A stretch of 63,769 nt of DNA, taken from an uncultured Gammaproteobacteria bacterium. GTDB lineage: Bacteria; Patescibacteriota; Microgenomatia; PFEM01; CAYPPS01. Both the position numbers and the translations under genes were made by a program. The stretch is taken from NCBI GenBank assembly GCA_964655765.1, contig CAZZNI010000001.1, positions 1 through 63,769 on the forward strand, given 5' to 3'. The notes under the pieces are model-generated. The model was not told the origin of the DNA. It worked only from the letters and a program-made list of their open reading frames with translations, and made no database searches. This document shows positions 3,366 through 42,912 of the stretch, piece after piece (position 1 is the stretch's first letter; each line of letters starts with the position of its first letter).

Positions 3366-3674
3366 ATGCCAGTCACAAAATCAGCCAAAAAAGCTCTGTC
3401 CAGAGATCGAAGACGAACGGTAATCAATTTGAGGATTAAAAGAAAATTGAAAGCCAGCGTTAAAAAAATGCGCACCAGTCCTTCGGCCGATAACTTAAAA
3501 GAGGTTTACCAGGGTTTGGACCGAGCCGCCAAGAAAAAATATATCCACCGCAAAAAAGCCGACCGGTTGAAATCAAGACTGGCTAGGTTATTAGCCAATC
3601 ACAATAAAGAAAAACAGCCAGTTAAAAAGACGGCCAAACTTAAACCAAAAACTAGTAAAAAAACTAGTAAATAA
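3366..3674 (+). CDS. rpsT: 30S ribosomal protein S20
   Basis: MPVTKSAKKALSRDRRRTVINLRIKRKLKASVKK is a typical S20 N-terminus. The protein is small and highly basic. Confidence 0.85.
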   Translation: MPVTKSAKKALSRDRRRTVINLRIKRKLKASVKKMRTSPSADNLKEVYQGLDRAAKKKYIHRKKADRLKSRLARLLANHNKEKQPVKKTAKLKPKTSKKTSK

Positions 3675-3740
3675 TCTTCAACCTAAGCAAATCAACTTTA
3701 CAAATCCAGCTAGCCTGCCTATACTATTTTTAAGTAAGCA

Positions 3741-4286
3741 ATGGCTGCCCGAAAAAAAACAATCGAGTTTCTACCGCAAGAAGACTGGGAAAAATCGGCT
3801 CTTGGTAAAATTTTAAAATGGGCCTTAAAAACCGGCCGTTATGTGGTTATTTTCACTGAATTAATCGTCGTTATGGCACTGCTGTCCCGTTTTAAGCTTG
3901 ATCGCGATTTAACTGATCTTAACGAAAAGATCGCTCAATACCAGGCGATGATTGATGCTAGCGGCGAGTTTGAAAACCAATTTCGCTTTTTACAAGCTAA
4001 AACTGACCAGATTAATAAATTAGAACAGCAACGCGGTGTTCTTAACCAGTTATTAGTTACTCTAAGCCAAATTACCCCAATTAATGTCAGTCTAAATATT
4101 CTCAATATTGAAGGCGGCAAAATCAGCTTGCAAGCTCAAGCCCTGCAAAGCAATGGAGTAGAAACTTTCATCACCAATCTGGAACAAAATCCAAATTTTA
4201 GTCAAATCCGCTTATCTGAACTTGGCAGTGACGAAAAGAGTCAATTAATTAATTTCCGGCTGGACTGGCAAACCGGCAGTAAGTAA
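3741..4286 (+). CDS. PilN-like type IV pilus assembly protein (tentative)
   Basis: Short cytoplasmic N-terminus with an EFLPQE motif (compare the INLLP motif of PilN), a single TM, then a coiled-coil periplasmic part. Followed by a PilO-like ORF. Confidence 0.35.
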   Translation: MAARKKTIEFLPQEDWEKSALGKILKWALKTGRYVVIFTELIVVMALLSRFKLDRDLTDLNEKIAQYQAMIDASGEFENQFRFLQAKTDQINKLEQQRGVLNQLLVTLSQITPINVSLNILNIEGGKISLQAQALQSNGVETFITNLEQNPNFSQIRLSELGSDEKSQLINFRLDWQTGSK

Positions 4287-4290
4287 AATT

Positions 4291-4920
4291 ATGGCCCAGA
4301 TCGGCAAAGGCGATTATTCTCGCTACCAACATTATTTTGTCAATAACTTAAGCCGTTTTTACAAAGGTAAAAAGAGCCGTGTTTACAGCGGGGCAATTTT
4401 AACCTTAATCACGATATCTTTTTTTGCCTTTTTCGCCTTAAAGCCAACCGCCAGTACGATTGCCGGTTTACTAAAAAAAATTGACGATCAAAAAAAAGTT
4501 GCCGACAGCTTGGAGACTAAAATTAACGCTCTTTCCCAGGCTCAAGAACAATACAACGCCATTAGCAGCAAAATTTATCTACTTGACCAAGCCTTACCCC
4601 CGGACAGTCAGTTTGACCAACTGACCCAACAAATCGAACTGGCCCATCGACAAACAAAAGTTAAAATGGTTGACTTAAAATTCAGCAAAATAGAACTGTG
4701 GGGACAGGAAAATGATCAACTCGGTCAGGTTGAATTTTCACTGGTTACCCAAGGTGAATATCATCAATTAAAACAACTGCTCGAACTACTGCCAAAATTA
4801 AGACGAATTATTCAAGTTAATAAATTTGCTTTCCAAAAAAGCCGTGATCAAGACCAGCAAGATATTTTAACCCTAGCAGTTTCCGGCCAAGCTTTTTATT
4901 TAAACAGTTTAAAAAAATAA
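4291..4920 (+). CDS. PilO-like pilus assembly protein (tentative)
   Basis: Single TM (ILTLITISFFAFFAL) followed by a coiled coil. Adjacent to the PilN-like ORF. Confidence 0.35.
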   Translation: MAQIGKGDYSRYQHYFVNNLSRFYKGKKSRVYSGAILTLITISFFAFFALKPTASTIAGLLKKIDDQKKVADSLETKINALSQAQEQYNAISSKIYLLDQALPPDSQFDQLTQQIELAHRQTKVKMVDLKFSKIELWGQENDQLGQVEFSLVTQGEYHQLKQLLELLPKLRRIIQVNKFAFQKSRDQDQQDILTLAVSGQAFYLNSLKK

Positions 4921-4923
4921 CAA

Positions 4924-5250
4924 ATGGCAATTAAGACCGCTTCTAGTTTTAGTAAAAATTTATTTCTAATCGCCCTGATCACAATGGTAACTGTCTTTTT
5001 GTGGATTGGGCTGGAAGTTGTAAGAACCAGTAAAAAGACCACCATCCCCCAACCAACTCAAAATCAAATGCGGCCGCTGAACAGTAAAATTGATCCGGCT
5101 GTTTTTTCTCTGCTTGAGGAAAAAATTGCTCCTTCAAAAGAAGAATTATCAATCCTTCTTCAAAGCCAACCAGCTGCCAACCAACCGTCAACTGACTCTA
5201 GTAAGATAAGCACAGAAAGTGGTAGTTTAGATAGTAGACAAGAAGAATGA
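4924..5250 (+). CDS. Small single-pass membrane protein, unknown function
   Basis: N-terminal TM (LFLIALITMVTVFLWIGL). The 4-nt ATGA overlap with the next ORF suggests co-translation in the same operon. Confidence 0.4.
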   Translation: MAIKTASSFSKNLFLIALITMVTVFLWIGLEVVRTSKKTTIPQPTQNQMRPLNSKIDPAVFSLLEEKIAPSKEELSILLQSQPAANQPSTDSSKISTESGSLDSRQEE

Positions 5251-6620
5251 AAATAAAATTTAAGCAGGTAAAAATACCTACTTTAGTGGGTTTAATTGTG
5301 TTGTTGGCCGGTATCGCCGCCGGAGTTTATTTTATTCAACAAAGCCCTAACTGGTTACTGCGCGCCTCACCAGAAAGCAAGCCAAAACAAGTTAAAATAA
5401 CCAATATAACTGATGGTAGCTTTGCGGTTTCCTGGGTTACTGACGAAGCCACCAGCGGTTTTGTTAAATATTCCACTGACAGCAGCTTTGATTTAGTTGC
5501 CAAAGATGACCGCGACCAGTTAAGCGGTAAAACTAATAATTACAAAACCCATCATGTTACCGTTAAGGGTTTAACCCCGCAAAGCCGTTACCAGTTTAAA
5601 ATCGGCAGTGGTCGAAGTATTTTTGACAACAACGGCCAACCATTCGACACCACCACCGCCCCCAAACTGTCCCAAGCTGAACCGGCCAGTGATGTCGCCT
5701 ATGGTAATGTTGTTAACCAAAACGACCAACCAGTGGAAGGGGCAATTGTTTACTTGTCACTAAACGGGGCCACACCCCTTTCAACCATTAGTAAATCATC
5801 TGGTAACTGGGTGATCCCCCTAAACACTGCCCGCTCAGAAGACTTAAATAATTTTGCCACTTACGATAAAAGCGCTTCAATTGAAGATATTTTTGTCCAA
5901 GCGGCCGACAGCGGTTTTGCCACCGCGATTGCCACCACTGGTAACGATAACCCATTGCCAACAATCAAACTAGGCAATAACCACGATTTTAGAACCACCG
6001 GCGGCAGTAATAACACGGAAAATCCAATTGGCCAAATGCTAGAAGAGCAAAACCCGCCCGATATTGAACTCGATGGTTTAACCAGTAATGATAGCCAAGA
6101 AACAAATTTTGACAATCAACAACTAACTATTATCAATCCCAGCCAAGATGAAAACCTAAATACACAACGACCAGAATTTTTAGGCACCGCACCAGCCAAA
6201 CAAACATTAACCATCACCGTTGAATCAGAACCGGTTTATACCGGCACTGTTCAAGTCGACGAAAACGGCAACTGGTCGTGGGAGCCGCCGGCTGATCTTG
6301 AACCGGGCGACCACACAATTACCGTTTCAATGGCTGACGGTACAACCGAAAGTAAAACTTTTACTGTCTTAGCCCAGGGAGACAGCTCGCTACCAGCTTT
6401 AACCGCAACCCCATCGGCTCAAATCAGCCCAACGCCAACTATTATGCCAACCAGCTCACCAACCCCAACTCCAACCGCAATTGCCAGCCGATCCTCAATG
6501 CCAGCCACTACTAGCGGTGTCCCAACCAGTGGCATTCTAACCCCAACCTTAACCCTTATTGTTATCGGGCTAGGCTTAATTAGTTTTTCTGTAGTTGGCA
6601 AAAGGATATTTCTACTTTAA
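5247..6620 (+). CDS. Cell-surface protein with FN3-like and Ig-like domains, a Pro/Thr linker and a C-terminal PxTG-type sorting signal
   Basis: The FN3/PAP-N-like segment is ITNITDGSFAVSWVTDEATSGFVKYSTDSS...HHVTVKGLTPQSRYQFKIGSG. The TPTPT linker is followed by a VPTSG + hydrophobic + KR tail. Confidence 0.6.
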   Translation: MKIKFKQVKIPTLVGLIVLLAGIAAGVYFIQQSPNWLLRASPESKPKQVKITNITDGSFAVSWVTDEATSGFVKYSTDSSFDLVAKDDRDQLSGKTNNYKTHHVTVKGLTPQSRYQFKIGSGRSIFDNNGQPFDTTTAPKLSQAEPASDVAYGNVVNQNDQPVEGAIVYLSLNGATPLSTISKSSGNWVIPLNTARSEDLNNFATYDKSASIEDIFVQAADSGFATAIATTGNDNPLPTIKLGNNHDFRTTGGSNNTENPIGQMLEEQNPPDIELDGLTSNDSQETNFDNQQLTIINPSQDENLNTQRPEFLGTAPAKQTLTITVESEPVYTGTVQVDENGNWSWEPPADLEPGDHTITVSMADGTTESKTFTVLAQGDSSLPALTATPSAQISPTPTIMPTSSPTPTPTAIASRSSMPATTSGVPTSGILTPTLTLIVIGLGLISFSVVGKRIFLL

Positions 6621-30448: not shown

Positions 30449-31329
30449 GTTTACTGGCGCCGTTAATTTTCACTGGCCAACTGTTCGTAACAGGCAAATT
30501 TTCCACTGTCATTTGGGCAATTATTCTTTTTACCTTGCTAACTTCAGCAGTTTATTTACTGAACGACATCGCCGATTTAAGCCGTGATCGACTTCACCCG
30601 ATTAAGAAAAACCGACCGATCGCCGCCGGTAAACTACCAGTTCCGATTGCTCTCTTTGCCGCCATTATTAGCGTTGTCATCTCACTGGCTTTTGGTTACT
30701 CGCTCGGTTTTTTCTTCTTTTTAATCCAGCTAGCCTATTTAACCTTGCAAATTTCCTACACTTTAAGCTTAAAAAAATTAATCATTGTTGATATTTTGTC
30801 AATCGCCGCCGGTTTTATACTGCGAGTTTACGCCGGTTCACTGGTAATCAACGCCCATATGAGCGTTTGGTTTCTGCTTTGTACTGTATCACTGGCACTT
30901 TTTTTGGCAGTTGGTAAACGACGGGCCGAACTAACTATCGTTGGCCCAGAAAAAACCACTAGAAAAACATTGGACAGCTATAACCTTAATTTACTTGATT
31001 CCTACTTGGCGATCTTTGCTACTTCAGCTTGGCTGTCTTATGCCTTATTCACCTTTTTTAATCCACCGCCGGTGGCTAATTATTCAATTCCTTTTTTAGC
31101 TAAATTGCCGGCAACGCTGGCGGGGATTAACAAGTGGCTAATGATTACTATCCCATTGGTTTTATATGGATTGATGCGCTACATCAATATTGTCTACACA
31201 GCAGGAATCAAGGCTGAAGCGCCGGAACGGGTTCTCTTAAACGACAAACCACTGCTAATTACCGTTATTTTGTGGGGCGGTTTAGTGGTACTAATTCTTT
31301 ACGGTCTTTCTCCGGCCGTCCTCAATTAA
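30385..31329 (+). CDS. UbiA-family prenyltransferase, decaprenyl-phosphate phosphoribosyltransferase-like
   Basis: SIRPRQALKNLSLLAPLIF and LNDIADLSRDRLHPIKKNRPIAAG motifs with 8-9 TM segments. It overlaps the upstream gene by 64 nt. Confidence 0.8.
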   Translation: MVQILFYLARSIRPRQALKNLSLLAPLIFTGQLFVTGKFSTVIWAIILFTLLTSAVYLLNDIADLSRDRLHPIKKNRPIAAGKLPVPIALFAAIISVVISLAFGYSLGFFFFLIQLAYLTLQISYTLSLKKLIIVDILSIAAGFILRVYAGSLVINAHMSVWFLLCTVSLALFLAVGKRRAELTIVGPEKTTRKTLDSYNLNLLDSYLAIFATSAWLSYALFTFFNPPPVANYSIPFLAKLPATLAGINKWLMITIPLVLYGLMRYINIVYTAGIKAEAPERVLLNDKPLLITVILWGGLVVLILYGLSPAVLN

Positions 31330-32236
31330 CCAAAGTTGCCCAATCGCCGCTGATCCAACCCGACTCACCGTTAAAATCAATTTTGTACCAACCATTTTCT
31401 TCTTCACTTAGATAGGGGTAAGTTTCCCCTGGTTTGGCCCGGCCTGATTCAGACGCAGTCGTTGACGGCTCACTCCTAACTCGCAGCCAACCGGTTGGTG
31501 TTTCCTTAATCTCCACATACGGCTTTTGTTTAGTTTGGCTCGAATCAACCGGCTCATCCGAATTGGTTTTTGTGTCAGCTGATTGACTGGCCTGGCTTTC
31601 TTGCCCTAATACTTCCTCCTCATCCAAGCTGGATTGCTCGACAAAACCGTCTAATTCCTGAGCCAGCTTCACTTCAATCATTAGTTTATATCCAGCAAGA
31701 AGCTTAGCATCGCCAATCACTCGTTCTTCATAACCTGGACTGCTGACCACAATCTCATAAGTTGCCGGAGTTAGGTTATCGAGCGTTAACGGAGTAAAGC
31801 CGCGAGGTTCATTGTTAATCTTAACGACCGCCTGATCGGGGGTAGAAATAACTGACAAGGCAGCTGTTTCCCGGCTGGCAATCTTTTCCAGAGAAACCAC
31901 CTGACCTGATTCACGACTGGGATCCTTAGCAAAACGATGATTAATCATTGTCCGTGCCAATGAAGTTAGATTGATTCTTTTTTCCCAAACAACAAAGTCG
32001 CTCTCGCTTCCTTCGGGAACAATTTTAATAACATGCTCACCAGCTTGAAGGTTGTCTTTAACAAAAGGGGTAACACCAACCTGACTACCATCAATGAAAA
32101 CGGTCGCTCTCGGTTCAGTCTCTATTTTTAAAGCCGCTGCGGCCGGGCCGGAAAAAAACTTTTGCTTGACAACTAGCCCAACTAAACCCAAGGACAACAA
32201 CACAATCAATCCCAATAACCAATTTCTTTTAATCAT
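31322..32236 (-). CDS. PEGA-domain / SH3-like-domain envelope protein
   Basis: TM anchor, two PEGA-like repeats (VFIDGSQVGVTPF..., VKINNEPRGFTPL...GYE), and a C-terminal SH3b-like WLRVRSEPS...GWYKI. I chose the start MIKRNW (ATG 32236), because the longer ORF runs through the tRNA. Confidence 0.65.
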   Translation of the reverse strand: MIKRNWLLGLIVLLSLGLVGLVVKQKFFSGPAAAALKIETEPRATVFIDGSQVGVTPFVKDNLQAGEHVIKIVPEGSESDFVVWEKRINLTSLARTMINHRFAKDPSRESGQVVSLEKIASRETAALSVISTPDQAVVKINNEPRGFTPLTLDNLTPATYEIVVSSPGYEERVIGDAKLLAGYKLMIEVKLAQELDGFVEQSSLDEEEVLGQESQASQSADTKTNSDEPVDSSQTKQKPYVEIKETPTGWLRVRSEPSTTASESGRAKPGETYPYLSEEENGWYKIDFNGESGWISGDWATLVN

Positions 32237-32310
32237 GGAGGTCCAGGCGGGAGTCGAACCCGCGTATAACGGTTTTGCAGACCGTCGCCTTACCACTTGG
32301 CTACTGGACC
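32236..32310 (-). tRNA. tRNA-Cys (GCA), with the CCA end encoded
   Basis: The reverse complement is GGTCCAGTAGCCAAGTGGTAAGGCGACGGTCTGCAAAACCGTTATACGCGGGTTCGACTCCCGCCTGGACCTCCA. It has a 7-bp acceptor stem, anticodon loop CT-GCA-AA, a GGTTCGA T-loop and a 3' CCA. Confidence 0.9.
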
Positions 32311-32413
32311 GATTGCCTTAATAAGCAGTTTTGTATTATCTCATGGCCAAATTTAATTGTAAAGAAAAAATAGCTTAAAAGTTGCCTTTTTATGCTATAA
32401 TACTAGTAGTTGT

Positions 32414-32438
32414 AATCCTCCTATTGGGAGGATTTTTT
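32414..32438 (+). promoter_or_regulatory. Terminator-like hairpin plus T-run in the leader of the M23 peptidase gene
   Basis: AATCCTCC (32414-21), loop TATTG, GGAGGATT (32427-34), then TTTT. It is preceded by an extended -10 TGCTATAAT (32393-32401). Confidence 0.35.
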
Positions 32439-32461
32439 GTGGCCTAAAAACCACTAAAAAG

Positions 32462-33058
32462 ATGTTTAAGAAACTGAAACAACAACTGACAGACAAACGA
32501 TTCCGGGGCCACCCGGTAAGTCGATTTTTGCGGCCCTTGTTTGAAAAAAGAGGCTTACGAGTTTTTTTGGGCTTAAAACTAGCCATTATTATCGCCTTAA
32601 CCGCTTTTAGCCTACCGGCCTACCAGGTTTTCGGTTATAACCAGGAAGAAGAGTTAACAATTTTACGAACCAAGTTAACTAAAATTGCCACCGAAGTTTC
32701 GGTTCGACTACCATTGGAAAGCCAAGTCGTTTCCCAAGGTTACCACGCTTTTCATCGAGCAGTCGACTTTAACGGCCAAACAGGTGACAGTATTTACCCG
32801 ATTATGAACGGTACCGTTGAAAGTATCGATTACAGCCGATTTTCTTACGGTAACCATGTTGTTATTAATCACGGCTCAGGTATTCGTTCACTTTATGCTC
32901 ACTTGAGCAAAATAAATGTCGAAGTCGGCCAGACAGTGGATAAAAATACAATTATCGGCCTAGTTGGCTCAACTGGCTTTTCTACCGGTTCCCATCTTCA
33001 CTTGGAAGTTTCCGATCACAACCGGAATTTCAATCCGTTCTCAATTTTGCCGCTTTAA
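32462..33058 (+). CDS. M23-family (LytM-type) metallopeptidase
   Basis: HRAVDF and GSTGFSTGSHLHLEV zinc-ligand motifs, plus an N-terminal TM. Confidence 0.85.
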   Translation: MFKKLKQQLTDKRFRGHPVSRFLRPLFEKRGLRVFLGLKLAIIIALTAFSLPAYQVFGYNQEEELTILRTKLTKIATEVSVRLPLESQVVSQGYHAFHRAVDFNGQTGDSIYPIMNGTVESIDYSRFSYGNHVVINHGSGIRSLYAHLSKINVEVGQTVDKNTIIGLVGSTGFSTGSHLHLEVSDHNRNFNPFSILPL

Positions 33059-33090
33059 AAAGCTTGCAATTTATTTTCCTTTAGTTAATA

Positions 33091-33738
33091 ATGATTAGAG
33101 TTATGAGCAGAATTCTGCCGCGAGCTTTAATTGTTGCAACCGTTTTTTTATTGATCAGCTCCAGCCAAGCGCTGGCAGCTTCTTTGAGTTTGTCACCAGC
33201 GAGCAAGTCGGTAGAAAACGGCGATAGTTTTGCTGTCAATGTTGTTCTGGACACTGATGCCGATAGTGTTGACGCAGTGGACATCATTCTCAATTTTGAC
33301 AGTGACAAATTAGAATACAGTTCCGCCAGCTATAGTACTCTTTTTACCAACACCATCACTCCGTCAGTCAGCGGCGAACAGATCATTTTACGAGCAACTT
33401 CACCAACTGCCGTTACTCAAGGCGGCACCTTTGCCACCATAACCTTTCAAGCTACTGGTACCGGAACGGCCCCGGTTAACTTTGATTTTACCAGCGGCGA
33501 CACCACCGACAGCAATGTCGCCTATCAGGGTGAGGATTTACTCGCCTCTACCAGCAACGGCAGTTATACTATTATTGCCTTAGGGCTAGGCAGTGATGCT
33601 TCCAGTAGTCCAACCCCAACTCCAACGACAGTTAGCGAAGCAATGCCGGAAACTGGTGTGTTAACACCAACCTTGATTGTTTTGCTGGTCGGGGTTAGCC
33701 TGATCGGCCTGCCGCTAGTCTGGACAATAAGAAGATAA
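33091..33738 (+). CDS. Cohesin-like-domain surface protein with an MPETG sortase-type sorting signal
   Basis: Signal peptide, then a cohesin-type block (LSLSPASKSVENGDSFAVNVVLDTDADSVDAVDIILNFDSDKLEY), a PTPTP linker, and MPETG + hydrophobic + RR. Confidence 0.6.
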   Translation: MIRVMSRILPRALIVATVFLLISSSQALAASLSLSPASKSVENGDSFAVNVVLDTDADSVDAVDIILNFDSDKLEYSSASYSTLFTNTITPSVSGEQIILRATSPTAVTQGGTFATITFQATGTGTAPVNFDFTSGDTTDSNVAYQGEDLLASTSNGSYTIIALGLGSDASSSPTPTPTTVSEAMPETGVLTPTLIVLLVGVSLIGLPLVWTIRR

Positions 33739-33751
33739 GCTTTTTATTGTT

Positions 33752-34315
33752 ATGGAAGAAATCAGTATCAGTAGTCATCAATATGATTCTCGTCGGGCGC
33801 TAACTAAGCTTGGCTTGGTTGTCATCATTGTTATAACCCTGGGACTGGGAGTCTATTTTGCCATTTCGCAAATCACCTTGCAAAACAAGTTAGCCGAAAT
33901 AAACAACCAGCAACTATTACTTTCAATTCCTTTAACTTCAGCCCAATGGAGCGGTCTAGGTTCCGTTCCTGAGCCAAAAGTAAAGCTAGACTTAAGAGTT
34001 GATACCGGTTACCAACCAATCACCTTCCTGCTCGACTCGGGCGCCGTCGTTTCTTCACTACCACGGGAACTGGCCGAACCAATGGGCAAAGACCTGGCTT
34101 TCTTAAAACGAACCACTTTTAAAGGTTTTGGCAATCAGACTAGTTTCGCTTATCATTCAGAAATGACCCTTAAAGTTGGTGAGGCAGAAATGATTTTACC
34201 GGTAGTTTTTACTGAAAACGCCCAAACCCAGGCTTTACTGGGGAGACAAGGGTTTTTTGATAATTATTCAATTACTTTTAATCATATTTTAAAAACAATT
34301 GAGATTCGAAAATAA
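33752..34315 (+). CDS. Membrane-anchored retropepsin-like aspartic protease
   Basis: N-terminal TM and an FLLDSGAVVSSLP (D-S/T-G-A) active-site motif. Confidence 0.6.
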   Translation: MEEISISSHQYDSRRALTKLGLVVIIVITLGLGVYFAISQITLQNKLAEINNQQLLLSIPLTSAQWSGLGSVPEPKVKLDLRVDTGYQPITFLLDSGAVVSSLPRELAEPMGKDLAFLKRTTFKGFGNQTSFAYHSEMTLKVGEAEMILPVVFTENAQTQALLGRQGFFDNYSITFNHILKTIEIRK

Positions 34316-34339
34316 ATTAAAAACGGTTAAAATAAAAAT

Positions 34340-35038
34340 ATGTCACTTTTAAAAACTCTGGACAAATTATCTTTTAAAAAAATTCTCTCTTTTGCCGTTA
34401 TTTTCGGCATCACTCTTTCTATTCCCACCACTTTGTTGTTATTAGACCAACAAACACGGTTATCATCACAAGCAAAGATTGAAAAACCACCGGTGGTAAT
34501 GATTGAAAAGCAAGATTACGGTCCACCACCGCTGGCACCCATTGAGGTGGAACGAGTTTATCCCTTCTTGGGTAAAGCTGGTGATGAAGTGGTTTTGTTG
34601 GGAAAAAACTTTGGTCTTAACCCTAAAGACAAATTTCTTTCTCTAAACGATATCGCTATTGAGGAGGAAAAAATTGATGTCTGGCAAGATAACATGATCA
34701 CCTTTTTTCTACCGGAAGGAGCAGTTTCAGGACTGATCAATATTAGAGCCGGTAGTTTTTCTTGGACTTCTCCTCGGCCTTTTGTTGTCTATAATCAAAA
34801 AACCGTTACCAAGGTGCAAAAAAATGGCCAAACACTGGCGATTGTTTCACCTGTTGATATTGCCAGCGTCGAATACAAATTAGTTGGCCAAAATGAAACG
34901 AAAACCGTCAAGGTTGAAATGGAAAGTCAAATTTTTAGCTTTGTCACTGAAACAGGGGAAATCGACTATCTGCTACTTTTTAACAGCAACCAACAGCTTG
35001 TGCCTTTTTATGTCAACCCGATTGAATTTGATTTTTAA
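34340..35038 (+). CDS. IPT/TIG-domain surface protein
   Basis: TM anchor, then VYPFLGKAGDEVVLLGKNFG, which is typical of an IPT/TIG Ig-like fold. Confidence 0.45.
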   Translation: MSLLKTLDKLSFKKILSFAVIFGITLSIPTTLLLLDQQTRLSSQAKIEKPPVVMIEKQDYGPPPLAPIEVERVYPFLGKAGDEVVLLGKNFGLNPKDKFLSLNDIAIEEEKIDVWQDNMITFFLPEGAVSGLINIRAGSFSWTSPRPFVVYNQKTVTKVQKNGQTLAIVSPVDIASVEYKLVGQNETKTVKVEMESQIFSFVTETGEIDYLLLFNSNQQLVPFYVNPIEFDF

Positions 35039-35165
35039 GAAATGAATATTAACAGAGTTCCATTAAACACCAAAAGGCAGTTTTTTGTTCCCAAATCTGG
35101 TCCCGGCAAGAAACCGTGGGAAAAAATCAATTGGCCAAAAATGAATAAACAAACGAAAGCCGGTT

Positions 35166-35618
35166 TTACGACCGGGGTTCAGTCATCGCCTGCCAAAACT
35201 CAGACAAAGAACCGGGCATAATTGAAGATTGCCTTAATTGCCGCTTTAGTCCGCCAAAAATTTCCCCCAAGTCTGCTATTTCTGCTTGCCTTTTTTCCTT
35301 CGATTGCTCGTAGTTCCTGCTGATAAGAACTGCCCAGCCATTAAAAAGCCGTTGATTCAACTCGTCAACAAAGGCACCTTTTTCAATTGCACCGGTAGTA
35401 TGGGCAAGAGTCAAGCGTAAAAACTGCATTAAACCCCGAGCGCGGGTTAATCCCGGCTGATTTGCCAAGATCGGCGCCTGCTCTCTACCGCTCAAAAAAA
35501 TCGCCGAATACAAAAGTGCTCTGTAACGTTCATTGCCGATCATTGCCGCCACTGCCGGGCCGGCGCCTTGATGCTGCGAGCGAATCTGTGACAAAGCCAA
35601 AGCTTGCCGAACAGACAT
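35166..35618 (-). CDS. Hypothetical protein, with a weak lytic-transglycosylase-like motif
   Basis: 150-aa ORF in a locally GC-richer patch. ARGLMQF resembles the SLT GLMQ motif, but no clear catalytic ES pair is present. Coding status is uncertain. Confidence 0.3.
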   Translation of the reverse strand: MSVRQALALSQIRSQHQGAGPAVAAMIGNERYRALLYSAIFLSGREQAPILANQPGLTRARGLMQFLRLTLAHTTGAIEKGAFVDELNQRLFNGWAVLISRNYEQSKEKRQAEIADLGEIFGGLKRQLRQSSIMPGSLSEFWQAMTEPRS

Positions 35619-35665
35619 CTCCAGATTCCGCGGCGCTTCACCGCTGTTGTCAACTGTTTGAATAT

Positions 35666-35722
35666 TGAAGGGGCTGGCTGATTCTTTTCTTCTTGGGGCA
35701 AATCAGCCACTAGACACTCAGT
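35666..35722 (-). pseudogene. Diverged orphan copy of the groEL 3' end (encodes TECLVADLPQEEKNQPAPS)
   Basis: The sense strand is actgagtgtctagtggctgatttgccccaagaagaaaagaatcagccagccccttca. It matches groEL 41299-41355 at 43/57 nt (hand count) and 16/19 aa. No GroEL homology is visible on either flank. Confidence 0.7.
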
Positions 35723-35832
35723 TTTATTCCCAAGACAAATAAAAATTTCTGGCTGCAAAGAGAAAAGCAAGCGAAAAAAACGGAGTTAAAAGTAGCCAGG
35801 GAAAACAAAAACTAAACGAAAACGGTAATTCT

Positions 35833-36405
35833 TCACCGCACACTTCTGATAATATCTAAAAAAATTCCCTCGTATCCCGATTCCGGTTTTAGATCGTATT
35901 TAGTAAAAAACATCTGGAAAATGTACAGCTTTTCATTTTTAACCGCATAGACGAAATTGCCCCGCCGCTGCCATTTTATATTCCCCGCACTTATCGTTTC
36001 TCCCTGTTTTTGACCGAAAGCATTTTGAGCTATAAACTGATCAAAAGAATATTGCCGAGCATCGTAACACAAAAACGAAAAAATTGAACTTTTAGGCGGG
36101 GAATTACCCTTAGCCGGCTCATTAAAAGTAGTTTGCGATAACGGCGGTTGAGGCAGAGTCAATTTAACATCCGACACTTGCCAATTTTGGGGATAGTCAA
36201 AAGAAATACTACAAACCTTATCAGCGTACTTTCCTTTTGAGGCAAATTTCTGGCTAGAGTCCAAGCCGTCGCTCAAAAGAGCATTTACATCTTCTCGTTC
36301 TTTTGCGGGTTGTTTTATTAAAAGCAGAACAATAGGGAACAATAGGACAGCAACTATTGTCCCGACAACTATCATTGATCGGTTTTCGCCAGACTTTTTT
36401 GCCAT
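35833..36405 (-). CDS. Membrane-anchored hypothetical protein
   Basis: 190 aa with an N-terminal TM (IVVGTIVAVLLFPIVLLLI). No recognisable family. Confidence 0.45.
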   Translation of the reverse strand: MAKKSGENRSMIVVGTIVAVLLFPIVLLLIKQPAKEREDVNALLSDGLDSSQKFASKGKYADKVCSISFDYPQNWQVSDVKLTLPQPPLSQTTFNEPAKGNSPPKSSIFSFLCYDARQYSFDQFIAQNAFGQKQGETISAGNIKWQRRGNFVYAVKNEKLYIFQMFFTKYDLKPESGYEGIFLDIIRSVR

Positions 36406-36459
36406 CGGTTTATTCTAGCATTTTTTACCAAGCAGTCTGTTACACTAGAACTGTGTTTT

Positions 36460-36600
36460 AAACTTACGCCTTTCTACGGGGCGCCAATTGGAATAACAGT
36501 TCCAATGCCGGGGTCTTCGCTCTCAATTTGAACAATGCTCCGAGCAACTCAGGGAACAACAATATTGGCTTCCGGTGCGCCGTTGCCCCGTAAGTAATTA
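36460..36600 (+). repeat. DGR template repeat (TR)
   Basis: 141 nt, matching the reverse complement of 38327-38466. In frame it reads TYAFLRGANWNNSSNAGVFALNLNNAPSNSGNNNIGFRCAVAP* with 11 AAY codons. It lies 184 nt upstream of the RT ATG on the same strand and is not part of any long ORF. Confidence 0.92.
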
Positions 36601-36783
36601 GCCTGGCAAGGTGAGATTTGCAATAAAATGTTTCTCGCATTTTTGCAACGGGACCGTAAACAAATTAATTACAGGTTTAAAACATATCTCGCCGGCGCTT
36701 TGCCGATGGATAAAGAAAGCGGAGAGGGCGGTTGTTGAACTGGTTTGGGCCAAAAGAACCGCCTTCTTTGCAATTACCACAAA

Positions 36784-37914
36784 ATGTATGCTCGAATAAT
36801 TTCTTTTAAAAACCTGCTTGAGTCTTACTACCGGGCGCGAAGAAATAAAAGATCAAAAAGAAAATTACAAAAGATTGAAGTCAATTTTGAAAACCGACTA
36901 ATCGACATCAAAAAACAACTAGAAAAGGGCTCTTATCAACCAAAACCATACCATCAATTTTTAGTCCATGAGCCCAAAGCCAGGCAAATCAGCGCTCCGG
37001 CGTTGATCGACCGCATTGTCCAACACGCTGTTGTTAATATAATCGAGCCCGTTTTTGATTGCCAGTTTCTGCCAAACACCTTTGCCTGCCGGAAAGGCAA
37101 GGGCCCTCATCTGTGTCTGCGCCAAGTTTCAGCCGTTTACAAAAAAATCAGCCGGACACACACCGTCTTTTACGCTTTAAAATGCGACATAAAAAATTAT
37201 TTTGCCAGTATTAACCATGCGATACTGGCGAAATTTTTGCTTCAATCAATTTCGTGCCCTAAAACGATCGCCCTATTAAAAACAATCATCAATTCTTATG
37301 AAAATTCGCCCGGGAAAGGTATCCCTATCGGTAACCTAACCTCACAGCTTTTTGCCAATATCTACCTTCACCCACTGGACATTTTCATAACCCAAAAACT
37401 TAAGGAGAAAAGCTATTTCCGTTACATGGATGATTTTGTCATTCTTTCGTTTAATAAAAAATATTTAATAGACTTACGCGGTAGGATCAAAGGCTTTCTT
37501 GAAGAAAACCTTAAACTTCAGCTTCACCCCCGTAAGTCAAATATTTTTCGGGCCGACCGGGGTCTGGACTTTGTCGGCTATATAATAAAGCCAAATGTTA
37601 CGCTGATGCGCAAAAAAACTCTGCGACGCTATAAAAAAAGACAAAAAAAGCGTCTAAAACGGCTCAAAAAATATAAAAAACAACTTAAAGATATCCGAGT
37701 ATCAACACAGCTTTCTTTGCTTGAAAATTATCAAAAAAACGGCCCAAAAGAGGAGCCTCTGAAAGAAAAAATTGAGGCTCTCAAAACAAAGTTAAGAACC
37801 TCCAGAAATTCTTTCAAAGGGTTCTTGCGGTTCTCAAAATACGAAAGATTAAAAACCGGCGGGGTAAAAGTGAACGGTATCATCATTCCCCAAATCTTCC
37901 CCAAAAAGAAATAA
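36784..37914 (+). CDS. DGR-type reverse transcriptase
   Basis: RT motifs are PKARQISAPALIDRIVQHAV, DIKNYFASINH, IPIGNLTSQLFANIYL (the DGR-typical xGxxxSQ), FRYMDDFVIL (YMDD) and LDFVGYII, plus a Lys/Arg-rich C-terminal tail. I chose the ATG at 36784 (MYARIISFKNLL). The ORF-track TTG at 36745 is an alternative. Confidence 0.92.
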   Translation: MYARIISFKNLLESYYRARRNKRSKRKLQKIEVNFENRLIDIKKQLEKGSYQPKPYHQFLVHEPKARQISAPALIDRIVQHAVVNIIEPVFDCQFLPNTFACRKGKGPHLCLRQVSAVYKKISRTHTVFYALKCDIKNYFASINHAILAKFLLQSISCPKTIALLKTIINSYENSPGKGIPIGNLTSQLFANIYLHPLDIFITQKLKEKSYFRYMDDFVILSFNKKYLIDLRGRIKGFLEENLKLQLHPRKSNIFRADRGLDFVGYIIKPNVTLMRKKTLRRYKKRQKKRLKRLKKYKKQLKDIRVSTQLSLLENYQKNGPKEEPLKEKIEALKTKLRTSRNSFKGFLRFSKYERLKTGGVKVNGIIIPQIFPKKK

Positions 37915-37916
37915 AA

Positions 37917-38255
37917 TTAATTTTTGTTTGACCTGGTCCAAGCTGTCAACAATTTACCAATTTCATTAATTTTTTCCGCCACGATTGCGTATTTTTTAAT
38001 CGATAAAAAATTAGTGTCTTTGGCAATGCGGACATAAATCCGAAATAAATCTAGGTTGACTGAAATTTGTTTTTGTTCTTGAGCTCGGTCGGGTTTGCTA
38101 TTAGCGATAATGGCTAGCTTAATCATCTCTATATTGGTTTGCAAAAGATAGTTGGACAACAAAAACCGCTGGCTTTTGGGAAACCCGGCAACCATACGGT
38201 GGGTATATAAATACAAATCGTAAAGCTTTTGGAAAATAATCAACTGGTCAATCAT
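37917..38255 (-). CDS. avd: Avd-like accessory variability determinant (four-helix-bundle / 23S rRNA IVS protein family)
   Basis: 112 aa, all-helical. IFQKLYDLYLYTHRMVAGFPKSQRFLLSNYLLQTNIEMIKLAII matches the four-helix-bundle family consensus (FPK..r..L...l). It lies between the VR and the RT. Confidence 0.8.
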   Translation of the reverse strand: MIDQLIIFQKLYDLYLYTHRMVAGFPKSQRFLLSNYLLQTNIEMIKLAIIANSKPDRAQEQKQISVNLDLFRIYVRIAKDTNFLSIKKYAIVAEKINEIGKLLTAWTRSNKN

Positions 38256-38275
38256 TTTTTTAAGACTTGCCGCCG

Positions 38276-38295
38276 GCCCCGAAGGACTTCGGGGC
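38276..38295 (-). other. GC-rich hairpin/cruciform downstream of the VR (candidate DGR target-recognition structure)
   Basis: gccccgaag-ga-cttcggggc is a perfect 9-bp inverted repeat (effectively an 8-bp stem with a 4-nt loop). It lies 31 nt beyond the VR 3' end. Neither strand has a flanking U-run, and the element is absent downstream of the TR. Confidence 0.55.
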
Positions 38296-38326
38296 AGATA
38301 TCTTAAGATAATTCGATAGCTACATA

Positions 38327-38466
38327 AAATTACTTACGGGGCAACGCCGCACCGGAAGCCAAGCGGGCGCCCCCTGAGGAGCTCGGAGCAAAGTGCAAAA
38401 GGAGAGCGAAGACCCCGGCACCGGAACTGCTACCCCAATAGGCGCCCCGTAGAAAGGCGTAAGGGC
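38327..38466 (-). repeat. DGR variable repeat (VR), forming the 3' end of the target gene
   Basis: 140 nt. The reverse complement aligns with the TR with differences at 19-20 TR adenines, one C->G (TR 36580) and a 1-nt deletion (TR 36563/36564). Confidence 0.92.
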
Positions 38467-40699
38467 CGCCCGAAGCCGACCCCTGATAATACTGACCAAC
38501 TCTTTGACTGGAGCTCCAAGCGCTATTGGAGGCCTTTAGTTGGTCAAAGCTTAAAGTGCCGTAAGAGGAAACGGCAGTCCATTCCACCCAAGCACTGGGG
38601 TTGCCGACCGGTTTGTCGGCACCATAAATCGTATTGTCAGTCCATCCCCAGAGGTTGCCGGCCAAATCCCAGATAACTTCACCGTTGCTAAGATAATGAG
38701 TTCGTCTTTGGGTGGCGCCAGTACCGCAAGTAGGGTCAACATCTTTGGTGACCGTGCCGTAACAGCCTTTAGTATCATCAGTTGAAGCTTGGAGCCCCAA
38801 AGCCGGGCCATTATCATTGTGGCCGGCAACCAAATATTGACTACCCGGGCTGTTGCCGCAACCAGTGCCGTTTAGGGCGCACCAATTAGATCCCTGCCGT
38901 TCGACATTTCTGGCAATGGTCATCCACTCGTTGTTAGTGATCAGGTGGCCACCGATTGACTGGCAGTAGGTAATGGCGTCAACTCCACTACCGTCAGCGT
39001 CTTGAGCTATTCTGGCGATGGGAGCACCAGCCGCAGAGGAGACAATTTGGCCACCTTTGTCCTCGACACACCGGCACCCGGATAGAATATTTCCCCAAGT
39101 ATCATAGGCAGTGTTGCATGAAGCATGAGCTCCGTCAGCAGTTTCTCCTATTCCATCGCCATCAACATCACATTTGGCTTCGTATTTCATGACACAAAAG
39201 TCACCGGTACCGTAGAGCGGATCGCCAGGGATATGGATAAAGCCGGTGGGGCAAGCGGTTTGAGCATTAGCCGGTGACAACACTTGGGACTCACCGAATT
39301 TGACCGCCCCGCCAAGCAGGTCAACATAAATTTCAAAAAGAGTCCGGTGGTAAGGATAAAGTAAAAGATCATCCATTTTGCCGGCAAAGTAGTTTGGGGT
39401 GGATCCCGCCCGGCCGATAAAAACAGCACCGTCCGTTACCGTCCAAAGTGCCAGCGCCGGGGAAGAAACCAGCCTGCCGTCGACATAAAAACTGGCATTG
39501 TCACCATCGTAGGAAACAGCCACATGTGTCCACTCATCGGTAGAAATACCAGCGCCAGATGAGGTGACGGTGCTGCCGCCAAGAGGCCCAAAAATGAGCT
39601 CGCCGCCGCTGGTCAGCTGAAAGGTGTAACCGTTGGTGTGGGGTTGGGAAACCAGGGCGTAATTGCCAAGCGAAGAAACATAAATCCAAACGGAAATGGT
39701 AATGGCGCCGCCCAGTTGAAAACGGTCATGATTACCCAGATCAACATAATCATCCGAGCCATCGAACAACAGAGCGTAATTGTTGTTGCCCGTCGCCCAT
39801 TGGCTGTTATCGGCAGGAAAATTGACCAAAGCCGCCCGGCTGTAATTGGGAGAATTATTCATTGTTTGTGCCCCCGAACCGTCATCAAAATTCATTTCCG
39901 CTACCGGTTTACCCCTTTCCATTGAATAGGCCAGCGAACCTTCGCTGCGACTGCCGGACAACAACCTAACCTCGTCGACAGACCCGTCTAAAAAATCAGC
40001 GTAAGTGGAAGCACCGGTTTTGGTTGATCCCAGATAAAAATTAGCGGCCGTGTCGGCAATTGAAGTCCCCACCGAAGTGGCAGTCCCCTCCCGAACACCG
40101 TTGATATAGATGTAAATGTTTCCCGGGCTGTCGACGTTATAATAACCCTGAAAAAGATACCATTGGTTAGCTAAAATTTGGGTTTTGCCGGTAGCGGTTT
40201 TAATGGCCGCGGCAGTACCGTCAGGGGAAACTTGGAACTTAGGCCAGGCCCGGCCATCGGCGTCAGTTTGTGTAATCAACCGATAGCTTCTAATATCGGT
40301 CGTTTCATCCCACTTGGCTAGCACTGTTTGAATGTTGTTTTCGGTAGACGAAACGGTATCAAATTTCACCCAAGCTTCAACCGAAAAACTACCGGTTTGA
40401 GAAAAATCGGCCGAATCATCGGCAACCCCATAATCGGTACTGCCGTTAAATTCAGCCCGACGGCCATATTTCCCCACTGTCTTAATACCGGCAGGTGAAC
40501 CCGACACCGCCGTCAAAGACAAATCATTTAATCCAACCCTGTCTTTAATGTTGACACCGCCGCCGGTTCCTTCAAAGTCATAATAAACCGTTGGCGTTTC
40601 CCAAACACTCCAGTCAGCTTCAACCGGACTAACGAAAAAAAATATCGGAACCAAAAATAATAGAAGTTTAAAACCAATGCTTTTTATGAAAGGTAACAT
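38330..40699 (-). CDS. DGR target protein: secreted, two LamG/concanavalin-A-like lectin domains plus a C-terminal FGE-sulfatase/C-type-lectin-fold domain carrying the VR
   Basis: Signal peptide (LLLFLVPIFFFVSPVEA|DW). LamG-type blocks are FNGSTDYG...FSVEAWVKF...IYINGV...DEVRLL and FDGSDDYVDLGN...WTHVAVSYDG...FYVDGRLV...GKMDDLLLY. The FGE/CLec block is AGNLWGWTDN...YAFLRGAYWGSSS. The gene is markedly GC-richer than its neighbours. Confidence 0.88.
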   Translation of the reverse strand: MLPFIKSIGFKLLLFLVPIFFFVSPVEADWSVWETPTVYYDFEGTGGGVNIKDRVGLNDLSLTAVSGSPAGIKTVGKYGRRAEFNGSTDYGVADDSADFSQTGSFSVEAWVKFDTVSSTENNIQTVLAKWDETTDIRSYRLITQTDADGRAWPKFQVSPDGTAAAIKTATGKTQILANQWYLFQGYYNVDSPGNIYIYINGVREGTATSVGTSIADTAANFYLGSTKTGASTYADFLDGSVDEVRLLSGSRSEGSLAYSMERGKPVAEMNFDDGSGAQTMNNSPNYSRAALVNFPADNSQWATGNNNYALLFDGSDDYVDLGNHDRFQLGGAITISVWIYVSSLGNYALVSQPHTNGYTFQLTSGGELIFGPLGGSTVTSSGAGISTDEWTHVAVSYDGDNASFYVDGRLVSSPALALWTVTDGAVFIGRAGSTPNYFAGKMDDLLLYPYHRTLFEIYVDLLGGAVKFGESQVLSPANAQTACPTGFIHIPGDPLYGTGDFCVMKYEAKCDVDGDGIGETADGAHASCNTAYDTWGNILSGCRCVEDKGGQIVSSAAGAPIARIAQDADGSGVDAITYCQSIGGHLITNNEWMTIARNVERQGSNWCALNGTGCGNSPGSQYLVAGHNDNGPALGLQASTDDTKGCYGTVTKDVDPTCGTGATQRRTHYLSNGEVIWDLAGNLWGWTDNTIYGADKPVGNPSAWVEWTAVSSYGTLSFDQLKASNSAWSSSQRVGQYYQGSASGGPYAFLRGAYWGSSSGAGVFALLLHFAPSSSGGARLASGAALPRK

Positions 40700-40723
40700 A
40701 ACTGATTAAGAATATATCTCATC

Positions 40724-40885
40724 TTGGGTCTTGGGGCAAGAAGTGAAGCTGAGGAAGAAAATTATTATTCTAAGATACCAAAAAAGACAAAAGGCTCTTG
40801 GGCCGGTGATAACTGGCCAGAAATTGAAAAACAAAGAGAAAAAACAGAACAAAAAGCGGCTCAAAAAAGAAAAGAGGCATGGTAG
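40724..40885 (+). CDS. Possible short antitoxin partner of the PIN toxin (tentative; non-ATG start)
   Basis: An open frame from TTG 40724 to TAG 40883-40885 ends ...KGSWAGDNWPEIEKQREKTEQKAAQKRKEAW*. It overlaps the PIN start by 7 nt (40879-40885; toxin ATG at 40879-40881, antitoxin TAG stop at 40883-40885). There is no ATG and no recognisable DNA-binding fold. Confidence 0.25.
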   Translation: MGLGARSEAEEENYYSKIPKKTKGSWAGDNWPEIEKQREKTEQKAAQKRKEAW

Positions 40886-41268
40886 TCTTAGACACAAATA
40901 TCATTATTGACCACCTGCGTCAAAATCAAAACAAAGAAACCACTTTGGCCAGTCTGGCCAAAAAACATGGTCAAGAAACACTTGCTCTTTCAATTATAAG
41001 TGTTCAAGAACTTTATAGTGGTAAAAGTACTGAAATTAAAGAAAAAGAAAAGGATTTACTAACAACAATCGGTCCGCTAAAGATCCTTCCCTTCGATTTT
41101 GAAATCGCTCAACTCGGCGGGAAAATCACTCGAAACAAAAAGGGTTATCTTATTGGTTTAGCTGATGCTGCTATCGCCGCTACCACGATTGTTAATAAAG
41201 CTCAACTATTAACCTTAAACAAAAAGCATTTTCAAGGAATAAAAGGGCTTAAACTTCTGAAAATCTAA
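40879..41268 (+). CDS. vapC: PIN-domain ribonuclease toxin (VapC family)
   Basis: The MVVLDTNIIIDHL N-terminal acidic motif, an internal SVQELYSG, and GLADAAIAATTIVN...LLTLNKKHF are typical of VapC. Confidence 0.8.
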   Translation: MVVLDTNIIIDHLRQNQNKETTLASLAKKHGQETLALSIISVQELYSGKSTEIKEKEKDLLTTIGPLKILPFDFEIAQLGGKITRNKKGYLIGLADAAIAATTIVNKAQLLTLNKKHFQGIKGLKLLKI

Positions 41269-41277
41269 AAGACGGTG

Positions 41278-42912
41278 TTACATCTGAGGCATGCCGCCCA
41301 TACCGCCCATCGACGGGGCTGGGTTGTTCTTTTCTTCTTCCGGGTGATCTGCGACCAAACACTCAGTTGTCAATATCATCGTCGCCGCCGAAACCGCATT
41401 TTGAAGCGCACTTCGAGTAACTTTGGCCGGATCAATAATACCGGCTTCAATCATGTCAACATACTTTTGGCTTAACACATCAAAGCCAATATTTTTACCT
41501 TTATTGCTCCTAATCCCAGCAATTACGACACCACCGTCTGCACCAGCGTTTTGAGCCAGTAATCTTGATGGTGCTTCCAGTGCTTTTTTCAATAACAACG
41601 CCCCGGTCAACTGGTCGCCTTCTAGCTCTTTTGTCTCGATTTGATCGGCCGCTTTAAGCAAAGTTGTTCCTCCGCCAGGGACAATGCCTTCTTCAATTGC
41701 CGCTTTGGTGGCCGCCACTGCATCCTTAACCCTCTCCTGGGTTTCTTTCATTTCCGTTTCGGTTGCCGCTCCGACTTCGATCACCGCTACGCCACCGGTT
41801 AATTTAGCCAGTCTTTCTTCCAATTTCTCGCGGTCAAACTCAGAATCAGTTTTTTCCAATTCATGGCGGATCTGTTTAATGCGGGCTTCAATTGCTGTCT
41901 TATCACCCTTACCCCCAACAATAATGGTTTTATCTTTATCAGCAACTACCCGGCCTGCTTGGCCCAAATCGTTAACTGTCACTTCTTCCAATTTTCTACC
42001 TAAATCCTGGGAAATAACCGTTCCACCGGTTAAAGCGGCAATGTCGGCCAAGCTCTCTTTGCGCCGGTCGCCAAAACCGGGGGCTTCTACCGCCAAAACA
42101 TTAAAAGTACCTCGCAATTTATTAACCACTAAAGTTGCCAATGCCTCACCCTCAATTTCTTCGCCAATAATAACTAGATTCTTGGAAACTTTAACCAGAT
42201 TCTCCAAAAACGGTAGCATTTCCTGAATTGAAGAAATCTTTTTGTCGGTTAACAAAATATAGGCATCTTCAATTACCGCTTCCATGGTATCGGGATTAGT
42301 CACAAAATAGGGGGAAGAATAACCCTTGTCAAACTCCATCCCTTCACGATAATCAATCACCAGCTCCAAGCCCTTGCCTTCTTCAACAGTGACAACTCCG
42401 TCAGTGCCAACTTTCCTTAACGCCTCGGCAATCTTACTGCCGATATTGGCATTTTGTGCCGACACGGTAGCAACTTGAACAATTTTATCTGAATCTTCTT
42501 TTATCACTTTGGCCTGACTCTTAATCGAGGCTAAGGCCTGCTTGCTGGCAATCTCGATTCCTTTGTTTAAGATCATCGGATTAGCACCAGCGGTAATGTT
42601 CTTTATCCCTTCCTCAACAATAGCCTGAGCCAGCACAGTTGCAGTAGTGGTACCGTCGCCAGTAACATCATTAGTTTTTTCCGCTGCTTCTTTGATTAAT
42701 TGCGCCCCCATATTTTCAAACGGATCTTTAAGCTCAATTTCTTTAGCAACAGAAACGCCATCATGAACAACCGTCGGCGCTCCCCATTTTTTATCAAGAG
42801 CAACATTTCGCCCCTTGGGACCCAAAGTTGTTCCAACGGCCTTAGCCACCGCGTCTAAACCCTTCTTGAGTTTTTTTCTGGCGTCTTCAGCGTAGATAAT
42901 GTCTTTGGCCAT
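41278..42912 (-). CDS. groEL: Chaperonin GroEL (Cpn60)
   Basis: [15 protein letters not shown]...GPKGRNV...[12 protein letters not shown]... with a C-terminal GGMGGM tail. Full length, 544 aa. Confidence 0.97.

Follow-up and report, generated by a model that had tools for sequence, protein, structure and literature searches.

The DNA analysed here is a 63,769-nt stretch (contig CAZZNI010000001.1 of assembly GCA_964655765.1; hereafter the window) in which the parts of a diversity-generating retroelement (DGR) lie side by side next to groEL. A non-coding template repeat (TR), along with the gene for a reverse transcriptase (RT), occupies the + strand, and an avd accessory gene and a target gene, the 3' end of which is the variable repeat (VR), occupy the - strand. 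A divergent gene for a 190-aa PsbP/DcrB-like protein at the TR end is a candidate fifth gene of the cassette. We interpret the cassette as a chromosomal DGR of a Microgenomates-type Patescibacterium that is active, or was active until very recently, with a probability of roughly 0.92. A preliminary description, prepared from the sequence, had placed the DGR parts here, and open reading frame (ORF) listing and repeat finding put them within a few bases of those positions (Table 1). The repeats, given as 36460-36600 (TR) and 38327-38466 (VR), were refined to 36463-36599 and 38328-38463, and the reported spacing of 2 nt between the RT and avd stop codons was borne out. The element had also been called complete. 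All of the claimed parts are indeed present, but the VR carries a frame-shifting 1-nt deletion.

Table 1. Features of the cassette in the window
Feature	Position	Strand	Remarks
190-aa PsbP/DcrB-like gene	35833-36405	-	divergent from TR-RT; candidate fifth cassette gene
Template repeat (TR)	36463-36599	+	non-coding, 137 nt long; 32 adenines; 11 AAY codons when read in the VR frame
IMH*-like GC-rich 3' end of TR	36565-36599	+	differs from VR copy at C36580 only
Structured spacer RNA, TR to RT start	36608-36772	+	covariation; counterpart of Bordetella 'Sp' by position
DGR reverse transcriptase, 376 aa	36784-37914	+	IGNLTSQ, YMDD, basic thumb, ~36-aa clade-specific insertion
avd accessory gene, 112 aa	37917-38255	-	Pfam bAvd, NCBIfam DivGenRetAVD
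GC-rich hairpin, 8-bp stem and 4-nt loop	38276-38295	-	~33 nt downstream of VR
VR-specific box TGTAGCTATC	38315-38324	-	directly 3' of VR; none after TR
Variable repeat (VR), 136 nt	38328-38463	-	3' end of target gene
1-nt deficit site of VR relative to TR	38363-38371	-	opposite TR 36555-36564, AAC-AAC-AAT
Target gene, 789 aa	38330-40699	-	signal-peptide-like N-terminus, two Laminin_G_3, lectin/FGE-fold domain ~38330-39289 with VR

Repeats and proteins of the cassette

The TR and VR form an inverted repeat with 84% identity. Aligned base by base, the two copies differ in 21 of 136 columns; 19 of these differences are at TR adenines, or 20 of 21 if the gap is put at T36563 (hypergeometric P ~ 3e-13), so the adenine bias that had been expected holds on realignment. 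Read in the frame of the target gene, the TR encodes YAFLRGANWNNSSNAGVFALNLNNAPSNSGNNNIGFRCAVAP followed by a stop codon, with 11 asparagine codons of the AAY type, a coding pattern that is textbook DGR template design. The VR comprises the final 134 nt of the 789-aa ORF and 2 nt past its stop, in agreement with the ~140 nt originally allotted to it. The GC-rich 35-nt ends of the two repeats, which resemble the initiation of mutagenic homing (IMH) and IMH* elements of other DGRs, differ solely at C36580, which is G38347 in the VR of the window and C in the VR of contig L001 (L numbers denote related contigs from public assemblies). The TR sequence is unchanged in other samples, and a repeat search of the 63.8-kb window revealed no further copy of either repeat.

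The RT ORF starts with ATG, with a TTG upstream at 36745, and contains both of the sequence features ascribed to it, namely GIPIGNLTSQLFANIYL (IPIGNLTSQ, of the [I/L]GxxxSQ type that DGR-clade RTs have where group II and retron RTs carry another motif) and YMDD, a YxDD catalytic box. It matches Pfam RVT_1 (4e-23). Its best match among solved structures is the 328-aa RT of PDB 8ub7 (9e-52, 180 bits), which we take to be the Bordetella phage bRT, although the PDB table labels it merely 'Reverse transcriptase'; other RTs in PDB reach 79 bits (group II) and ~69 bits (retron). NCBIfam holds no DGR-RT model, and the top NCBIfam match is thus group_II_RT_mat. Scores against the group II model TIGR04416 (154.6 bits, cut-off 300) and retron_St85_RT (62 bits, cut-off 235) are both below threshold, and Rfam found no group II intron or retron RNA in the window. 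By these comparisons the RT is assigned to the DGR clade, as had been expected, rather than to the retron or group II enzymes. The C-terminus had been described as unusually rich in Lys and Arg. In an alignment with relatives and ordinary DGR RTs it largely corresponds to their normal basic thumb, which rules it out as a special feature; an insertion of ~36 aa is alone specific to the clade. The product of the Avd-like gene exceeds the cut-offs of both NCBIfam DivGenRetAVD (83 bits against 80) and Pfam bAvd (2e-21; 76.7 bits against 40), consistent with its original designation. Avd proteins occur in most DGRs, though not in all.

The target protein begins with what resembles a Sec signal peptide, as judged by eye without a predictor, continues with two Laminin_G_3 (LamG) domains (Pfam, 4.7e-42) and ends in a C-terminal domain of ~320 aa (about 38330-39289) that carries the VR. 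The fold of the latter was assigned through its homologues, an AlphaFold2 (AF2) model and Foldseek. Homologues bear PF03781, the formylglycine-generating enzyme (FGE)-sulfatase domain; Pfam reports FGE-sulfatase for the domain itself below threshold (E 6e-4; 20 bits, cut-off 23.3), and a PDB sequence search with it yielded no match. The AF2 model has a pLDDT of 92.5, and its top Foldseek matches are TaqVP (5vf4), FGEs, Mtd (1yu1) and TvpA (2y3c), with TM-scores of 0.40-0.49. The VR is therefore predicted, on the strength of the model, to lie in a C-type-lectin/FGE-fold domain as in known DGR variable proteins, which agrees with the secreted, VR-bearing target that had been proposed.

Many proteins with 40-46% identity to the VR-bearing domain are fused to a prepilin-type N-terminal methylation domain (PF07963). 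The few of these that carry organism names are assigned to Patescibacteria, Doudnabacteria or Bellilinea. Going by these fusions, pilin-like proteins of other genomes may present this variable module.

Variation of the VR between samples

Activity was assessed at the level of contigs, in that assembled contigs rather than reads were compared. Identical Avd and RT proteins are present in several public assemblies. The contigs most relevant here originate from samples ERZ27252302 (L001/L007), ERZ27252305 (L002) and ERZ27252301 (L003). L001/L007 and the window agree throughout 7.66 kb except in the VR, where 38347-38434 holds all 16 substitutions and the single 1-nt gap. A comparison of the 77 ungapped VR columns, which leaves out the gapped AAC-repeat stretch where positions cannot be assigned confidently, places every difference at a TR adenine (15/15 between the window and the TR, 12/12 between L001 and the TR, and 11/11 between the two VRs). 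Because these two VR alleles sit in otherwise identical 7.66-kb backgrounds, homing must have been very recent. Contigs L001, L003 and L004 end inside the VR, as expected for a hypervariable site, and the samples of sister lineages show three or four different VRs alongside one and the same RT protein (L010-12, L016-19 and L103-107). A metagenome scan for the exact VR flank gave 0 matches, and a degenerate scan recovered the sister lineage only, with no more alleles of the exact lineage of the window.

The VR (136 nt) is 1 nt shorter than the TR (137 nt), and the deficit falls within GGG-AAC-AAC-AAT-ATT. The last ~11 codons of the target are consequently out of frame: the annotated ORF ends in GGARLASGAALPRK (SSSGGARLASGAALPRK) and a stop, and the canonical ...RPLGFRCGVAP end is still readable in the adjacent frame. 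The same -1 allele was assembled separately in L002 and L003, from different samples. Other length variants occur in the AAC-repeat stretch (-2 in L001, -3 in L104 and -3 in L105). The VR of L013 has a single-base insertion at two places (+2 altogether), one of which lies in this stretch, and that of L016 is +2 further upstream, outside the stretch; owing to these changes the L013 and L016 targets are cut off inside the VR. Indels between TR and VR were found in 7% of DGRs by Wu et al. (2018, PMC5758913), 74% of them beside AAC, and were ascribed to slippage; frameshifting indels were described there as a by-product of DGR mutagenesis. The 1-nt deletion in the window most likely arose from RT slippage. 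Given the recurrence of length changes and these published statistics, we read the frameshift as a by-product of mutagenesis; a later round of homing could restore the last ~11 residues of the target.

Contigs L005/L006 fuse the TR and its upstream flank (35952-36599) to the downstream flank of the VR, avd and the RT end (38327-37813), and both sides of the junction are 100% identical to the window. The junction represents either inversion of RT-avd by recombination between TR and VR or a chimera of the assembly graph, as inverted recombination and a chimera formed through the shared 19-37 nt predict the same junction. It hints that the TR and VR, as inverted repeats flanking RT-avd, might occasionally recombine, inverting the module and swapping donor and recipient contexts.

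Conserved signals, the 190-aa protein and genomic setting

The spacer between the TR and the RT gene folds into four helices around an invariant single-stranded GGAUAAAGAAAGC (36708-36720). The fold has 28 pairs, with 96.9% of cells paired, and 16 of the 28 pairs are changed on both sides. This covariation was reached by 0 of 500 shuffles, and slid controls drop to 42-63% paired. A covariance model recovers the spacer of the distant L021/L022 cassette at the expected place (E ~ 7e-4) and did not detect those of L020 and L051. The Sp region of the Bordetella DGR primes cDNA synthesis. The spacer RNA is its counterpart by position, and by analogy may serve in priming here.

A box, TGTAGCTATC, directly follows the VR. 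The window, L010, L013, L016 and L020 have this box in conserved form, and L021 has a degenerate one; no TR is followed by it, and its consensus across relatives is (T/C)GTAG(C/A)TATC. A hairpin of differing sequence stands at the same position downstream of the VR in L010, L013, L016 and L021; no single candidate was settled on for L020. Both signals are kept in L016 too, where the VR is far from avd. The IMH-like ends of the TR and VR hardly differ, and it is therefore probably the VR-only box, together with the downstream hairpin, that marks the recipient. In the usual scheme the IMH of the VR is distinct from the IMH* of the TR, and a GC-rich inverted repeat follows downstream. According to Wu et al. 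(2018, PMC5758913), IMH and IMH* are identical in some DGRs. Scans for promoter and terminator consensus sequences were no richer than in shuffled sequence and were not used.

The ~190-aa protein has an N-terminal transmembrane helix and a PsbP/DcrB-like domain with two invariant Cys. Homologues (41-54% identity) are encoded at the RT/TR end of every related cassette, despite different neighbouring genes. The family is small: one search gave 66 proteins, and an exhaustive one found 42 cluster representatives out of 1.84 billion. At least 13 of the longest contigs coincide in size between the matches to this family and those to the RT. The protein has no Pfam or NCBIfam match, and a profile search of the family against PDB sequences gave nothing meaningful. 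Its AF2 model has a pLDDT of 83, with CyanoP/PsbP as the top Foldseek match (E 1.4e-4) at a modest TM-score of ~0.44-0.49. In the literature we found no paper tying such a gene to DGRs. This clade-specific, membrane-anchored protein may work with the secreted target as its membrane partner, possibly as a dock or chaperone that shows the secreted hypervariable lectin on the cell surface of a candidate phyla radiation (CPR) bacterium. That it is an unrecognised fifth DGR component of this kind and, separately, that TR and VR occasionally recombine are offered as tentative readings, which seem to us less likely than not.

The preliminary description had set the inverted TR-RT module apart from the co-linear arrangement of Bordetella phage BPP-1, an emphasis that proved overstated. 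The RT clade has at least three strand layouts (parts in parentheses are encoded opposite to the RT): the window, L010-13 and L104-106 have TR-RT-(avd)-(target), L015-19 have TR-RT-(avd)-target and L021/22 have TR-RT-avd-(target). A fourth is tentative, as L020 (GCA_000398025.1) appears to be co-linear (target-avd-TR-RT-190-aa gene) with its orientation taken from precomputed gene calls. The RT of L020 (4495-5516) is split by the gene calls into two pieces, 143 and 178 aa long, reflecting either decay or sequencing errors. In the Bordetella DGR the cDNA acts in trans, and the relative orientation of the parts therefore poses no mechanistic difficulty. Wu et al. (2018, PMC5758913) list 48 DGR architectures in which components, even TR and RT, may occupy different strands, and a 2024 survey gives 38 patterns that include mixed-strand ones. 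With relatives varying in layout and mixed-strand cassettes listed in surveys, the inverted module is ordinary for DGRs. Architecture B3, with a reverse-strand avd between TR and RT, is not the case here, as the avd of the window lies downstream of the RT. A more distant DGR (L051, CAYHFH010000021.1, ~3400-5900; RT 45% identical) is found directly downstream of a groEL gene. Its TR/VR mismatches fall at T on the RT strand, and its TR is thus apparently on the strand opposite the RT.

The CPR-like host suggested for the window is supported by three proteins. The GroEL encoded beside the cassette is closest to metagenome-assembled genomes (MAGs) named Gottesman-, Levy-, Davies-, Woesebacteria or Patescibacteria, and Levybacteria, Roizmanbacteria or Patescibacteria are the names attached to relatives of the RT and of the 190-aa protein. 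Co-assembly MAGs with the title 'uncultured Gammaproteobacteria', apparently a placeholder label, supply the top GroEL match (78%) and many more. A phage origin was considered and rejected: no close relatives of the RT were found on viral contigs, the best being 44% identical.

The neighbourhoods of the cassette are unrelated among genomes (housekeeping genes, a type IV secretion system/relaxase region, and an AbiEii and ATPase region), from which it follows that the cassette moves as a unit. In L010-L012 (RT 71% identical) the five-part cassette is inside a conjugation-type region with TrbL, TrbC, a relaxase-like protein and a VirD4/TraG-like ATPase, which points to a conjugative element as its carrier in a CPR bacterium. 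In the window, a 60-nt copy of the groEL 3' end (35664-35723, -; original at 41309-41368, -) lies beyond the 190-aa gene; it shares 16 of 20 aa with GroEL 516-535 and 77% nucleotide identity. The DGR cassette and a vapC gene (35724-41277) are hence bracketed by the intact groEL end and a diverged copy, an arrangement like that which an island inserted at the groEL 3' end would leave behind. In the closest genome (L023) groES and groEL are the only genes in common, with no synteny beyond, which speaks neither for nor against an insertion downstream of groEL.

The vapC gene (40879-41268, +), between the DGR target and groEL, encodes a PIN-domain VapC toxin (NCBIfam VapCLeptosp, 62.5 bits, below its cut-off of 140; Pfam PIN, 1.9e-15), and upstream of it small ORFs (40724-40910, +) include a short, basic candidate antitoxin. 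On the other side of the cassette, ~30800-35040 is a run of genes for secreted or cell-surface proteins: a PEGA/SH3 protein, an M23 peptidase, a cohesin-domain protein, a retropepsin-like aspartyl protease (33752-34315) and an unannotated 232-aa protein. A 150-aa ORF (35166-35618, -) between these and the groEL-like fragment is gene-called in public assemblies and has no Pfam or NCBIfam match.

Weighing of the evidence, proposed mechanism and comparison with known DGRs

Several alternatives to an active DGR were weighed. The TR might be no more than a decayed paralogous piece of the target 3' end, beside which a retron or group II RT of no relation to it happens to lie. Only the bare presence of a repeat near an RT, along with an NCBIfam top match that reflects the missing DGR-RT model, speaks for this, and we give it next to no credence: the differences are concentrated at TR adenines, 8ub7 leads the PDB matches by 100 bits, the group II and retron scores are far short of their cut-offs, Rfam is without intron or retron RNA, and the five-part cassette is kept across genomes. 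The 1-nt deficit of the VR, for its part, could be an assembly or sequencing error, with ...GFRCGVAP as the real target end. Assemblers evidently struggle at this site, where contigs L001, L003 and L004 stop, and the stretch is rich in G/C runs (GGGGGCGCCCGC). The identical allele in independent assemblies of two other samples nevertheless makes an error improbable, and the -2, -3 and -3 variants and the one L013 insertion in the same stretch fit a biological slippage hotspot.

If the deletion is real, it may instead record a recently inactivated DGR, in which the frameshift harms the lectin fold at its conserved GFRC end, fixation of the allele has followed and the cassette is heading to decay. 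The out-of-frame ...LGFRCGVAP end, the recurrence of the -1 allele in L002 and L003, the likewise out-of-frame -2 allele of L001 and the truncated targets of L013 and L016 are all compatible with such a loss. We consider it unlikely, as the RT, avd, the TR with its 11 AAY codons and the spacer RNA are all intact, the two alleles in one 7.66-kb background point to very recent homing, out-of-frame alleles recur in lineages that are plainly still diversifying, and Wu et al. treat frameshifting indels as a by-product of mutagenesis.

Some observations do weigh against an active or very recently active DGR as we have drawn it. The frameshifted allele was assembled in at least two other samples (L002 and L003), which would also be compatible with low current activity or with a damaged target in this strain. 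One difference, C36580/G38347, is at a non-adenine position and is polymorphic. Heterogeneity of the VR within samples is deduced solely from contig breaks and between-sample alleles. As a lone fold the hairpin is not significant (z = -1.5), and the roles suggested for the box, the spacer and the 190-aa protein derive from conservation alone.

Under the interpretation as an active DGR, the + strand would be transcribed through the TR and structured spacer, probably onward into the RT gene. The RT, with Avd, would copy the TR into cDNA, misincorporating opposite template adenines, and the cDNA would replace the VR at the target 3' end on the opposite strand. Up to 11 Asn (AAY) positions could thereby be recoded on the ligand-binding face of the predicted C-type-lectin/FGE-fold domain, itself part of a two-LamG protein whose N-terminus resembles a signal peptide. 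Recipient and donor would be distinguished by the VR-only TGTAGCTATC box and the downstream hairpin.

DGRs of this kind are already well known. As they are known to be abundant in CPR bacteria, the element of the window confirms more than it extends current knowledge; the details useful to specialists are the frameshifted VR allele, the PsbP-like protein, the spacer RNA and the VR-only box. The element is valuable as a clean, well-resolved example in which comparison between samples gives direct evidence of mutation confined to the VR, and the recognisable domains of its target (two LamG and CLec/FGE) add to this value. The covariation-supported spacer RNA could steer biochemistry on priming, the VR-only box may explain recognition of the recipient where IMH equals IMH*, and the tightly linked membrane protein is a testable lead on how CPR bacteria use variable proteins.

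The element has the same kinds of part as the DGR of BPP-1 (mtd-VR/avd/TR/brt): its RT is of the DGR clade, Avd is present, the TR contains AAY codons, and the VR forms the 3' end of the gene for a lectin-fold target. The element also resembles it in the GC-rich IMH-like end, in the hairpin that lies downstream of the VR and in the spacer separating TR from RT. It differs in being chromosomal in a CPR bacterium rather than in a phage, in having TR-RT on one strand and avd and the target on the other, and in the near identity of its IMH and IMH* equivalents. Its target is a 789-aa protein with two LamG domains and a signal-peptide-like N-terminus instead of a tail-fibre tip, its RT thumb has the ~36-aa insertion, and it has the extra conserved gene for the 190-aa membrane protein.

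Closer in host group are the CPR DGRs described as the 'CPR set' by Wu et al. (2018, PMC5758913) and as 'DGR clade 2' by Roux et al. (2021, PMC8144416). These are likewise cellular and not viral, have avd on the strand opposite the RT and frequently show non-canonical differences and indels. The window has the order TR-RT-(avd)-(target), whereas B3, TR-(avd)-RT, is the layout of 90% of the DGRs in the CPR set (PMC5758913), and the target in the window has recognisable LamG and FGE/CLec domains where most CPR targets are unclassifiable. At the level of the variable protein, TaqVP (Thermus aquaticus), TvpA (Treponema) and Mtd (BPP-1) are the best structural matches of the predicted VR domain, and the TR-encoded end ...NIGFRCA is the familiar terminus of a CLec-type VR. 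Compared with these proteins, TM-scores are just 0.40-0.49 and sequence identity is ~15%, the N-terminus of the window target carries two LamG domains, and its present allele is frameshifted at the GFRC strand.

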